Source of the DNA: Promethearchaeota archaeon
GTDB taxonomy: Archaea > Asgardarchaeota > Lokiarchaeia > Sigyniarchaeales > SOKP01
Assembly: GCA_016840165.1 (NCBI GenBank)
Contig: JAEOSU010000072.1
Location: 192,001-256,000 of the forward strand
Length of the DNA: 64,000 nucleotides
Direction of reading: 5' to 3'
The position numbers and the translations under genes were made by a program. Within the stretch, counting starts at the first letter, position 1, and the number at the start of each line of letters is the position of its first letter. Under the pieces are notes generated by a model. That model did no database searches. It was not told where the DNA came from and was given only the letters and a program-made list of their open reading frames with translations. Positions 212-3,635 of the stretch are shown piece after piece.

Positions 212-751
212 ATGGAAGAGGAAAAACCTAAATTAAATGTAAAGGATTGGATTATTATCAGCACGACGATGATTGGCGTAAATCTAACTATTCTTGCGCT
301 TATATGGCAGTTCCCTCCAGAAGGGATTTATTCTGCAACCTTATTTTTGATGCTATCGTTTATTTTATTTATCAATAGTGTATCAGCAAATTCGAAGGCA
401 AATTTTGAAGTTCAATCAGGTAATTCTTCTAAACAAAAAATATTAAAGTTCGTTTCATTCGCGGAATATTCATTTGGGCTTGGATTTACGTTTATAATTA
501 TTGGATTCTCAATTTTAAGCTACAAGTACCTCCAAGATTTCGTTGGTCAGGATAATATCATGGTTCTAATTATTCCAGCAGCGTTTCTTGTGACAGCATG
601 GATTATGATAATCATCTATAATGCAATTAATTATTCAGGAAAAGCTCTAAAGGGGATAAGAAGTTTAAAACGTAATTTATGGATGATCATGGAATTTATT
701 TGTTTAATTATGATTATTCTCGATTTCTTAAACCTTTTCACAATCCCATAA
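212..751 (+). CDS. Hypothetical polytopic membrane protein (~5 TM)
   Basis: 179 aa with five hydrophobic segments; T-run after the stop. Confidence 0.8.
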   Translation: MEEEKPKLNVKDWIIISTTMIGVNLTILALIWQFPPEGIYSATLFLMLSFILFINSVSANSKANFEVQSGNSSKQKILKFVSFAEYSFGLGFTFIIIGFSILSYKYLQDFVGQDNIMVLIIPAAFLVTAWIMIIIYNAINYSGKALKGIRSLKRNLWMIMEFICLIMIILDFLNLFTIP

Positions 752-834: not shown

Positions 835-1098
835 CGAGAAGATGCAAATGAAAACCGAAAGGTATTCATTGCATAAGTATAGTAAGTCTTTACTTGCGTA
901 AAGGGTTTTCAATGCATTTTCTTCAATCGAAAGTTTGATTCGAGAACCAATCATTCAATTGCTTATCCGAAGATAATGCCTACCTCCCGAGGGAAGTGAG
1001 ACAAGCGCTAAATTAATATACTCGGAAGTATATTTTTTAGCAACAATACATTGCGTTTACTATACAACTTCTCGTTATTCATACGGTAAAGTATGAAC
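835..1098 (-). ncRNA. Candidate structured non-coding RNA (~265 nt) of unknown family
   Basis: Nested long-range stems (1068-1074/835-841; 1057-1065/877-885); hairpins with cUUCGg, GCAA and UCCG loops; G-U pairs in four stems that work only on the minus strand; upstream TATA box; no credible ORF. Confidence 0.7.
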
Positions 1099-1118
1099 AA
1101 TATATATATTGAAAAGGA

Positions 1119-1130
1119 CATATTTAAATG
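1119..1130 (-). promoter_or_regulatory. Archaeal TATA box (CATTTAAATATG) for the candidate ncRNA
   Basis: TTTAAATA about 25 nt upstream of the 5' hairpin; the same 12-mer lies upstream of the grpE-dnaK operon. Confidence 0.55.
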
Positions 1131-1223: not shown

Positions 1224-3635
1224 TCATTCACTTAGGAAACAGGATAAATTTTTCTGAATGAACTTGTGATTATCTTTATCATTCAAGAATTCGTCTAATT
1301 CGGGAAATTTTATAGGAAACAGGTTTTCGAATGCTCTCTTAAGGATTTCAACGTACTTTTTCGTATCATAATGATGTCGTTTTTCATCATAGAGATCCAA
1401 GAGGATGACTTTTCTTTCTGGAAAGGCCGGATCTGCGCCAGCATCGAGGATGATATAGCGTACATTTTTCCCAGCCGATGTAACAACCCCAGAATTTTCC
1501 AATTGTCTTGCTGCAACAGCTTGATATGAATTTACTTTATATTTTGATGGTTTTCGAGAGATTCTTTGGCGAATGGTGAGATCCTCCTTCGAAAGATTAC
1601 CTTTTTTAATTCGATCCACATACTTATAGAATAATTCTTTAGCTTGGGGAATTCTTCTTTTGAATTCTTCGACCGATATTGCCCCTTTAAATACATCAAT
1701 AAACGAATATTGAGCATCTTTTACTATTTTTGGAATATCTCTCCGTCGAACCTCTATGCCTCGTACCTTGATCTCATTGTTGCTTTTAATCCCCCAGTAG
1801 TGACTCAATGCCGGAACATCCGGCTCTGCTCGAGAGGGTAAGAACACAATAACATTAAATCTTCCATCCCAGCTCATGGGAATTTTAGTCTCTTCAGTGA
1901 TTTGTTGAGCGAGCTTTTTCGTTACTTTTTCAAACTCTTCTGGACTTCTATTTTCCATATCCTGAAGCCACATGGAGTCAACAATCCCGTGAATTACTTT
2001 GCAGCCAAATTGTTTTGCAATCTCGGCAGAGCGCATAAGAAATTCACGAGCAAATGCACAAACTGTTTGATGGGCTTCTATTTTGCCGAAACGCGCATTT
2101 TTAAATCCTAGATATCCAAAACTAACCACTAAAACCCACTTTAACGCTATATCCGTGAACTTATATCGCATCTCTCCGGTTTTTCTTACATGTTCTTTAC
2201 ATTTTAGCCGTTTATTCAAGGGAAGGCTAATTGATTTCGATATGATTCCTTGTCGTTTGGTACAGATGTGAAAATCTAAACCTGGAACTTTTATTCCTGT
2301 TTTGTCGTCTTTGCAGCACTGACAGTTAATCGTTTCCGAAGAGATGTTATAATTGGCCATTAATGAAGGATACATTGAGGAAAAGTCCAATTCTACAACT
2401 TGATCAAAAATACCGATTTGTGGCTCAAAAATGTGACCGCCTCGATCACTTCGAATAAGATCCAAACCACTATTAAACTCTTCGGGGCTTTTTTTAAAAG
2501 GGGGAATCAAATGCTCTAGCTTATATGCATAATAATACTGGATTGACTGAAGTGCGCCTCCAATTGTGATACGACTTAGCCTTTGTAGGGAAACACGGGA
2601 AATACGAGCCACTTCAATGACACCAGGTATATTTCCTTCCGTAAAATGAAGGCTGGCATATGAGTTAGTATCCAAGTGAAATCGGCCCGAGAAATAGACT
2701 TGTGTTTTTGAGCGCCTTCGTATAATGCCATAGGACATATAGTGATCGGAACTTCCAGAGAGCTTGAAGATACAATCTGCTAATGGGGTTTTGTCTCGAG
2801 AAAAATATAATTCTTTTTTTATACGATGAACTGATGCTCTTGCCGCTAGATAAGGAAATAAAAACTCATCTCCTTTTTGAGTAAGGATAATGTCAGGATC
2901 CAGTTTCTCAACTACAAGGGAGAGCTCTTTTATATTTTCCGCCTCATCACCATTATTAATAACGATCTTTCTTTTTTTATAGCCATCTGCCCGAGGGACG
3001 TTATCTTCGTCGTTTTCAACGATACTTATTTCGGCAAAAGCCATTGGATCGTCATAATAATATCTGATTCCTCTTTGCTGCACCTTTACATCCAGCCAAA
3101 TCGCTTTTAGAGGAGGGAGATCATAAAATAGTTGCTCATTATCATCGTTAAGAGTAAGGGAAAGTAAGTTCATGATCTCAACTCCGGTTTTCTTATCTTT
3201 CTTTATTTCTACCTTGAATTCACAGAGCGAGATTGGAAACAAATCTTTGACATAATAATACATCTGAGCAATGGGTAGGTCGATATTATAGAGGATGAAA
3301 AGCCCTATTTCATCGACCATTCGAATTACTTTTTTGAAAGCAGAAGGTTTTATTACAGAAATCCCAAGTAGTTTAGTTTTCTTATGATCTTCTAGTTTTA
3401 CATACTTCTCACAGATTCGCACCGACTTTACGTCATGGTTTTGTGCCAGACTGTGCTTAAAGCGCTGTAAATCTTTTCCAGCATTTCTTCTCGGGACCGC
3501 AAAAAACTCTGGAGAAAAGGAATCATGAATCCGCACAATCTTTTGTGTACTAAGTGTCTTTATCCAAAGGATTACTCCTTCACTACAAGTTGAGACATCT
3601 AAAAGCCAACCGGCAAAATTTTGTTCTTTGGACAC
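1224..3635 (-). CDS. polB2: Family B DNA polymerase, PolB2 (Dpo2) group, with degenerate proofreading motifs
   Basis: Motif A DFSSMYPS; motif B ALKWVLVVSFGYLG; motif C HGIVDS instead of YGDTDS (typical of PolB2); KVRGIEVRRRD; degenerate ExoI/ExoII; GTG start 1 nt after the upstream stop. Confidence 0.9.
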   Translation of the reverse strand: MSKEQNFAGWLLDVSTCSEGVILWIKTLSTQKIVRIHDSFSPEFFAVPRRNAGKDLQRFKHSLAQNHDVKSVRICEKYVKLEDHKKTKLLGISVIKPSAFKKVIRMVDEIGLFILYNIDLPIAQMYYYVKDLFPISLCEFKVEIKKDKKTGVEIMNLLSLTLNDDNEQLFYDLPPLKAIWLDVKVQQRGIRYYYDDPMAFAEISIVENDEDNVPRADGYKKRKIVINNGDEAENIKELSLVVEKLDPDIILTQKGDEFLFPYLAARASVHRIKKELYFSRDKTPLADCIFKLSGSSDHYMSYGIIRRRSKTQVYFSGRFHLDTNSYASLHFTEGNIPGVIEVARISRVSLQRLSRITIGGALQSIQYYYAYKLEHLIPPFKKSPEEFNSGLDLIRSDRGGHIFEPQIGIFDQVVELDFSSMYPSLMANYNISSETINCQCCKDDKTGIKVPGLDFHICTKRQGIISKSISLPLNKRLKCKEHVRKTGEMRYKFTDIALKWVLVVSFGYLGFKNARFGKIEAHQTVCAFAREFLMRSAEIAKQFGCKVIHGIVDSMWLQDMENRSPEEFEKVTKKLAQQITEETKIPMSWDGRFNVIVFLPSRAEPDVPALSHYWGIKSNNEIKVRGIEVRRRDIPKIVKDAQYSFIDVFKGAISVEEFKRRIPQAKELFYKYVDRIKKGNLSKEDLTIRQRISRKPSKYKVNSYQAVAARQLENSGVVTSAGKNVRYIILDAGADPAFPERKVILLDLYDEKRHHYDTKKYVEILKRAFENLFPIKFPELDEFLNDKDNHKFIQKNLSCFLSE

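Follow-up and report, generated by a model that had tools for sequence, protein, structure and literature searches.

The minus strand of the 64,000-nucleotide stretch of Promethearchaeota archaeon DNA analysed here (the window) very probably carries a stand-alone gene, driven by a conserved promoter of its own, for a highly structured non-coding RNA that belongs to a new family. The RNA occupies positions 834-1103, is about 270 nt long and has its 3' end at approximately 834-837; from the geometry of the promoter, we infer a 5' end at approximately 1100-1105. It follows a clamp-and-cargo design, in which a clamp of conserved sequence encloses a variable interior of covarying tetraloop hairpins. 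A preliminary description of this DNA had proposed an independently transcribed, undescribed Asgard ncRNA, and this proposal was upheld by a dedicated promoter, covariation on the minus strand only, contigs from metatranscriptomes and the lack of a description in Rfam or in the literature, where a search for an earlier account of this RNA returned nothing relevant.

Predicted fold of the window RNA

Folding of minus-strand positions 1105-825 gave a minimum free energy (MFE) architecture matching the one drawn in the preliminary description, with every listed hairpin and nested stem present. The MFE was -89.7 kcal/mol, compared with -51.8 ± 4.4 kcal/mol for 200 dinucleotide shuffles (z = -8.57), none of which was as good; the plus strand of the same stretch gave z = -4.88 against dinucleotide shuffles.

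All elements are described on the minus strand. The RNA begins with a 5' hairpin (1075-1100) with a 10-bp stem (1100-1091 paired with 1084-1075), whose sequence is conserved across the family and whose mid-stem covaries in the type B form described below. Helix P1 is formed by CGAGAAG (1068-1074) and CUUCUCG (835-841), of which GAGAAG/CUUCUC is invariant family-wide; its 3' strand is taken from the MFE fold, and contigs from RNA libraries end at 834 (two studies) and 837 (a third). P2 pairs GUAUAGUAA (1057-1065) with UUACUAUAC (877-885), as seen in both the MFE fold and the alignment, and consists of an invariant GUAU/AUAC core with covarying outer pairs. Within P2, helix P3 (CAAUGUAUU/AAUGCAUUG, 1053-1045/918-910) shows compensatory changes in all nine of its nine pairs. 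P3 belongs to the variable inner domain (910-1053), the type A cargo, which is replaced or enlarged in relatives and which here holds four tetraloop hairpins inside P3, with loops UCCG (1042-1006), CUCG (1003-977), UUCG (976-963) and CUCG (961-924). Hairpin H5 (888-903), between P3 and P2, carries a GCAA loop of the GNRA type; the corresponding loops of homologues are mostly GNRA and the stem covaries. Between P2 and P1 lies H6 (842-874), a part of the clamp with an apical UUCG-type loop and, across types A and B, the consensus GCAAUGAA..CC-UUCG-GG..UUCAUUGC. We use the name clamp for the constant set of 5' hairpin, P1, P2, GNRA hairpin, H6 and U-rich tail.

P1 is followed by a pyrimidine-rich and U-rich tail (806-833), which, as read from the sequence, is likely to be an archaeal terminator, and CCUUU(U) follows P1 in all homologues. 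The preliminary description had drawn attention to a CCUCCU motif within this tail; the motif does occur, at 826-821, but homologues do not conserve it and its position is downstream of the likely 3' end. Nearly every loop of the window RNA is a stable tetraloop, and long single-stranded stretches are absent. Neither a K-turn nor any other recognised motif for protein binding was seen on reading the sequence, the covariation scan contained no convincing pseudoknot, kissing or loop-loop pairing, and there was no conserved palindromic loop that would hint at dimerisation.

The absence of RNase P, SRP, tRNA, HEARO and riboswitch signatures noted in the preliminary description was borne out: a search of Rfam 15 with positions 835-1130 gave no match even at E ≤ 10, and ARAGORN found no tRNA at the locus. 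Weak snoRNA-like Rfam matches inside the neighbouring polB gene (E 0.5-6.5) are attributable to chance. A small protein gene was also considered and rejected, given that both minus-strand ORFs in the region (805-954 and 1008-1121) are broken by stops in the close homologues of genomes G007 and G041, leaving no conserved ORF.

Covariation and distribution of homologues

BLAST identified a single copy of the window RNA in its own genome, where the clamp motif is likewise unique, so the multicopy distribution expected of a MITE-like element was not seen. Among congeners, a 90%-identical copy was found in G007 and only the first 69 nt were matched in five others; these five partly matching loci have the same fold architecture with a different sequence. 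A covariance model built from six homologues from other species, with the window sequence left out (R1), was then run against the 64-kb window and gave one real match, to 827-1101 (82.9 bits, E = 1e-24). A broader model (R2) scored the window RNA at 203.6 bits.

Covariation was assessed for type A with a 12-sequence alignment covering 90 pairs, using as controls 3' partners slid by 1-3 columns and 500 shuffles. Standard pairs filled 92.4% of cells and double changes were seen in 41 of the 90 pairs, compared with 37-46% paired cells and double changes in 9-15 pairs for the slid controls; none of the 500 shuffles reached the observed values. In an alignment of 28 type B sequences, compensatory changes were found in 29 of 84 pairs. 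Helices of the clamp keep their sequence, while those of the interior all covary. With covariation far above the controls, selection acts on the structure of the minus-strand RNA, and the lack of covariation that would have refuted the preliminary description was not seen.

R2 matched 56 of the 151 genomes of the order, all within one taxonomic family: 19/41 in genus g1, 35/53 in g12 and 1/6 in g17, with 0/19 in three other families. A search of 126 genomes from 27 further Asgard families detected no member of the RNA family. A 25-base pattern combining the TATA box, the hairpin and P1 retrieved 37 loci in species genomes and 29 in metagenomes, and all 66 of these were confirmed by covariance model. 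The 37 genome loci are all in Asgard MAGs of the Promethearchaeota/Promethearchaeia, some of which bear the submitters' labels Hod-, Hermod- or Thorarchaeota. Six matches to the pattern in IMG/VR viral contigs are all due to chance (best covariance-model score 13.8 bits, at 48% GC), and a viral origin was rejected on this basis. The complete congeners G008, G016, G017 and G056 have kept the polB orthologue and lack the RNA both behind polB and elsewhere; the existence of complete same-genus genomes without the RNA marks it as accessory rather than essential. About 90 sequences of the family are in hand.

A conserved promoter module and presence in RNA libraries

The preliminary description had reported a promoter box approximately 25 nt upstream of the RNA, and this proved to be an invariant TATA box, TTTAAATA (1121-1128 on the minus strand), at a fixed distance of 23 nt before the TTCA of the 5' hairpin. 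Three further minus-strand elements precede it. The proximal upstream element TAATAACCCGTTAATAG (TAATA-N6-TAATA, 1134-1150) is conserved in all loci. Distal box 2 (CGAC with an A-rich run, 1155-1163) is found near -85 in every genomic context, and distal box 1 (CCGAC with an A-run, 1181-1194) is found near -118 at each locus of the family, whichever genes flank it. The complete module spans approximately 120 bp in the order CCGAC/A-run, CGAC/A-run, TAATAAYCCNTTAATAG, 5 nt, TTTAAATA, 23 nt, TTCA, and accompanies the RNA in at least four genomic contexts. The combination of proximal element and TATA box is unique in the window's own genome, with other matches at the level of controls. A promoter common to several ncRNAs was rejected on account of this uniqueness and of the absence of the element upstream of SRP or RNase P RNA genes.

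Logan contigs from four metatranscriptomic libraries of four studies (salt marsh and sediments) aligned to positions 834-1078 with 0-7 mismatches. Contigs end at 834 in two studies and, in a third, at 837, where the sequence runs straight into an Illumina adapter, which is a weak hint that the 3' end of the RNA lies just after P1. The 5' hairpin was never reached by metatranscriptome contigs, whose furthest ends fall at 1068-1078; this may reflect either 5' processing or branching of the assembly graph in a region that is conserved between co-occurring species. The contigs establish presence in RNA libraries and do not themselves fix transcription, strand or 5' end. Most weight is carried by the promoter, by the U-rich tail and by covariation specific to one strand. 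DNA runs cover the entire 700-1300 stretch, and the lack of RNA-run contigs on 400-833 or 1104-1700 is not evidential.

Modular forms of the RNA family

The promoter module, the 5' hairpin, P1 (GAGAAG/CUUCUC), P2 (GUAU/AUAC), the 3' hairpin H6 and the U-rich CCUUU(U) tail are constant throughout the family. Members range from about 240 to 670 nt in length, with at least 13 helices, and at least three types of interior are found in the same clamp, alone, in tandem (up to three modules) or fused. Type A, the form of the window RNA, measures 258-314 nt, type B is approximately 353 nt long and has a different set of hairpins, and a third interior type occurs as the middle module of tandem arrays. 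There are also a minimal form of 241 nt, forms with insertions (384 nt) and a fused form of approximately 665 nt, in which one clamp surrounds A-like and B-like interiors.

Tandem loci were found in G002, G012, G014, G015 and G052, each with two or three diverged head-to-tail modules behind one promoter and with no internal terminator. At the junctions, the P1 3' strand is separated by 2 nt from the next 5' hairpin, so that a 5' hairpin and P1/P2 are present in each module. At locus L031 (G002:C38), a gene-free stretch of approximately 740 nt behind polB (1501-2241) holds three mutually diverged modules with one promoter and a T-run end; its middle module has the third interior, and L030, L032, L034 and L035 have the same tandem-module arrangement. 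The fused variant of approximately 665 nt at L094 (3953-4625) has an MFE of -226 kcal/mol, and similar variants occur at L042, L041, L128, L150 and L159. A recent tandem duplication of the whole gene together with its promoter module was seen at L070 (G117:C76), where the copies at 1501-1798 and 2013-2310 score 152 and 132 bits.

Genomic neighbourhood and the link to polB

The gene upstream of the window RNA (1224-3635, minus strand) encodes a family B DNA polymerase, and the preliminary description had speculated that the RNA might act with this polymerase or in the damage response. To count synteny, 64 distinct loci with usable flanks were compared. A co-oriented polB lies upstream of the RNA in 27 of these, in both genera and with a gap of 100-135 nt (a few at approximately 630 nt or more); the remaining 37 loci are not adjacent to polB, so that the linkage by which the proposal was to be judged did not hold across the family. 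At the 36 unlinked loci examined, a 125-aa ORF lies upstream in 21 and the rest are set among unrelated metabolic and cytoskeletal genes, with neighbours including nitronate monooxygenase, alpha/beta hydrolase, AsnC and gelsolin. No gene is consistently adjacent across the loci of the family.

PolB orthologues also exist with no RNA behind them: these are 73-79% identical in four congeners and in three of four sister genera, and 54% identical in the fourth. In a second family, a 42% identical orthologue likewise has no RNA behind it, and a synteny-guided search for a diverged copy of the RNA behind polB in genera g13-g16 and family f2 found none. The position next to polB is probably ancestral, and we conclude that the link to polB is one of inherited synteny only, with no functional tie. 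The unlinked loci and the RNA-less orthologues leave a functional pairing with PolB unsupported.

Several neighbours were recorded in the course of this comparison. Convergent with the RNA is a 179-aa ORF (window 212-751, plus strand) that belongs to no Pfam or NCBIfam family and is found beside the RNA in both genera with 56-92% identity; judging from its sequence, its product looks like a multi-pass membrane protein. The gap between polB and the gene convergent with it varies among congeners (loci L063-L066), being empty in G008 and G017 and occupied by other small genes in G016 and G056. The 125-aa ORF (L080:969-1346 and 20 other type B loci) is co-oriented with the RNA approximately 158 nt upstream of it and also has no Pfam or NCBIfam family; the C-terminal part of its predicted product looks hydrophobic. 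A gelsolin-repeat protein (PF00626) is encoded near a type B locus (L079:2354-2950). Gelsolin-repeat proteins are eukaryote-like proteins typical of Asgard archaea, which fits the taxonomic placement.

Known RNA classes considered

RNase P RNA was considered because its archaeal model (RF00373) had no match in the window's own, 99.7%-complete assembly. It was rejected: canonical copies (115-142 bits) lie at other loci in the RNA-bearing congeners G002, G005, G007, G012, G014, G015 and G024, and reading of the window RNA revealed no CR-I/CR-V-like sequence (a GAGGAAAGUCC-like block). The lack of a match to RF00373 at E ≤ 10 extends over all contigs of the window's own genome (G000), and 17 of 24 congeners have a match of 115-142 bits (for example, G007:C58:17535-17858); an assembly gap is the most likely reason for the missing gene. 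SRP RNA (RF01857) was rejected because the match in the window's own genome lies on another contig, at C30:95130-95369, with none at 835-1130. This SRP RNA (L028) aligns to model positions 67-307 with 70.2 bits, compared with a gathering threshold of 96.5, which suggests that the 5' (Alu) domain is diverged or unaligned in this lineage.

A TnpB/IscB omega RNA (HEARO) or mini-transposon was excluded by the single copy, the absence of a guide and the lack of target-site duplications beyond chance. A Y RNA in a Ro60 ribonucleoprotein was excluded in turn, as the TROVE domain (PF05731) found no match in the window's own genome, in a search whose controls were matched, and there was no Rfam Y_RNA match. 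Self-cleaving ribozymes of Rfam (hammerhead, twister, HDV-like, hatchet, pistol and glmS) gave no match at E ≤ 10 in the window region or at E ≤ 1 in five homologous loci. Group I and II introns were set aside for want of an Rfam match and because the RNA is intergenic, with its own TATA box and U-rich tail. A riboswitch or cis leader was also rejected, since the gene that follows (212-751) runs towards the RNA on the opposite strand, the RNA has a U-rich end and the downstream genes vary by locus.

Proposed function and alternatives

The reading that we tentatively prefer is that of a trans-acting, long-lived RNA-protein particle, for which the clamp may serve as the protein platform. Conservation of the clamp in sequence, while the interior covaries, is what would be expected of a site read by a partner, and this favours a ribonucleoprotein. 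The sequestered ends, the tetraloops and the absence of a long single strand fit a long-lived folded particle, and the last two of these argue against an antisense regulator. In such a particle, the invariant clamp would be read sequence-specifically by one or more proteins and would seal both ends of the RNA against exonucleases, with the 5' hairpin at the start and P1 at the end, while the fast-evolving interior would act as a scaffold or as a set of exchangeable functional modules. Points that weigh against this reading are that no candidate partner protein emerged, that no gene is consistently adjacent, that no known protein-binding motif was recognised and that TROVE had no match in the genome.

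Equally well, the invariant helices could serve tertiary contacts or catalysis in a machine made of RNA only. Such a machine is the main rival, a real possibility if an unlikely one, and it would make the RNA either a ribozyme that processes tandem precursors by means of its 5' hairpin and three-way-junction core, or a self-assembling RNA like ROOL, GOLLD or OLE. The tandem loci invite a self-processing reading, with modules that abut head-to-tail behind one promoter, lack a terminator between them and each retain a 5' hairpin and P1/P2. Tertiary docking would suit the conserved GNRA loop and the invariant helices, the order of helices equals that of the VS ribozyme (a lead only), and the size, tetraloop density and patchiness of the family resemble those of large orphan bacterial RNAs. 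However, there is no Rfam ribozyme match, the 5' hairpin is uninterrupted and so provides no internal loop for a cleavage site, and neither convincing pseudoknot or loop-loop covariation nor a conserved palindromic loop for dimerisation was found; in addition, the contig ends at 1068-1078 are explicable by assembly-graph branching. More speculative, and rather unlikely in our estimation, is an Asgard-specific system whose clamp, made up of the 5' hairpin and the three-way junction, would be a core for catalysis or assembly that processes head-to-tail precursors and presents interchangeable cargo domains.

It is improbable that the RNA is an accessory of mobile-element, viral or defence origin (a decoy, a guide or an element-borne RNA) located at a variable spot and subject to gain and loss. 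Its uneven presence in closely related species that share the genes flanking polB, its patchy occurrence in g1 (19/41) and g12 (35/53), the occurrence of the gene and promoter in at least four contexts and the duplication, fusion and turnover of modules would all suit such an origin, but it is found as one copy per genome, with target-site duplications not beyond chance, no neighbouring transposase, integrase, reverse transcriptase or nuclease, no true match in viral contigs and conserved termini at both ends rather than a guide-like variable end. Synteny within subclades is also stable, as for a vertically inherited gene. Far less probable, and largely refuted, is the idea that the RNA serves polB functionally, as a partner or as an element in cis (a 3' UTR, a regulator or an RNA cofactor of PolB), which draws on the co-oriented position 100-135 nt behind polB in 27/64 loci of both genera and is opposed by the RNA's own promoter, the 37/64 loci elsewhere, the RNA-less PolB orthologues in the same genus, four sister genera and a second family, and the lack of evident complementarity or common regulation. 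A diverged housekeeping RNA (RNase P, SRP or other), a chance structure or a small protein gene is the least credible of these alternatives and is refuted within the models used: the unmatched RF00373 in the window's own assembly is set against RNase P RNA elsewhere in seven RNA-bearing congeners, SRP RNA on another contig and the lack of CR-I/CR-V-like sequence, while covariation and the 66/66 model-confirmed loci exclude chance and the ORFs are broken in homologues.

Significance

Asgard archaea are the archaeal lineage closest to eukaryotes and, to our knowledge, their non-coding RNAs are almost unexplored. The window RNA represents a new family, as it belongs to no Rfam family, matches none of the families considered by homology or defining features, and is not described in the literature searched. 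Its helices with dozens of compensatory pairs, its dedicated multi-element promoter and its recurrence in several metatranscriptomes from sediments and salt marsh are hallmarks of an elaborate RNA machine or ribonucleoprotein. The modularity is unusual: one invariant clamp combined with at least three interiors, in tandem and fused forms, amounts to a natural experiment on a conserved core. From the sequences in hand an Rfam-grade model could be built, and they are also enough for chemical probing, cryo-EM and a search for partners. Absence from some complete same-genus genomes provides built-in controls for phylogenetic profiling, and the finding corrects the tempting idea of a PolB-associated RNA. 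Its scope is that of a non-essential RNA of two uncultured genera with a putative mechanism. If the Asgard-specific system outlined above were true, it would be a new ribozyme class, an RNA-only assembly or the RNA subunit of a ribonucleoprotein new to science.

Comparison with known systems

The window RNA resembles RNase P and SRP RNAs in its size, its own promoter, its multi-branched fold closed by terminal helices and its occurrence once per genome, but it lacks their conserved blocks and is absent from complete same-genus genomes. Like the omega RNAs of TnpB/IscB (HEARO), it is a structured RNA within the range of 150-400 nt; unlike them, it has no nuclease gene, transposon ends or variable guide, and both of its termini are conserved across contexts. 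Y RNAs with Ro60, and vault RNAs, share with it a conserved terminal stem formed by the 5'-proximal and 3' ends, a U-rich tail, a variable interior, a non-essential role and, probably, abundance and stability. The terminal stem and U-rich 3' tail of this comparison are indeed seen, with P1 and P2 closing the RNA ahead of CCUUU(U), as a resemblance only. The family of the window RNA is, however, two to six times larger than Y RNA and has an extra 5' hairpin.

The VS ribozyme has a 5' substrate hairpin with a scissile internal loop and a kissing pair between loops I and V. The likeness lies in the order of helices (5' hairpin; P1; P2; inner domain; H5; P2'; H6; P1'), in a closed domain that contains two three-way junctions in succession and in the occurrence of head-to-tail multimers in some genomes. 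The window RNA differs in having a continuous 5' hairpin of 9-10 bp with no internal loop, an H5 loop that is GNRA rather than kissing and a large extra multi-hairpin domain, and in the lack of any loop-loop covariation found.

Large orphan structured RNAs are a familiar situation in bacteria, and the window RNA shares many features with OLE, GOLLD, ROOL and the raiA motif: a length above 200 nt, numerous helices that covary, stable tetraloops in close succession, the absence of an ORF, its own transcription unit, a patchy and lineage-restricted spread and a function that is not deducible from its neighbours. It shows no covariance-model similarity to these RNAs and is Asgard archaeal rather than bacterial or phage-borne, and its family is further set apart by a terminal clamp built around interchangeable interiors and by tandem multi-module transcripts.
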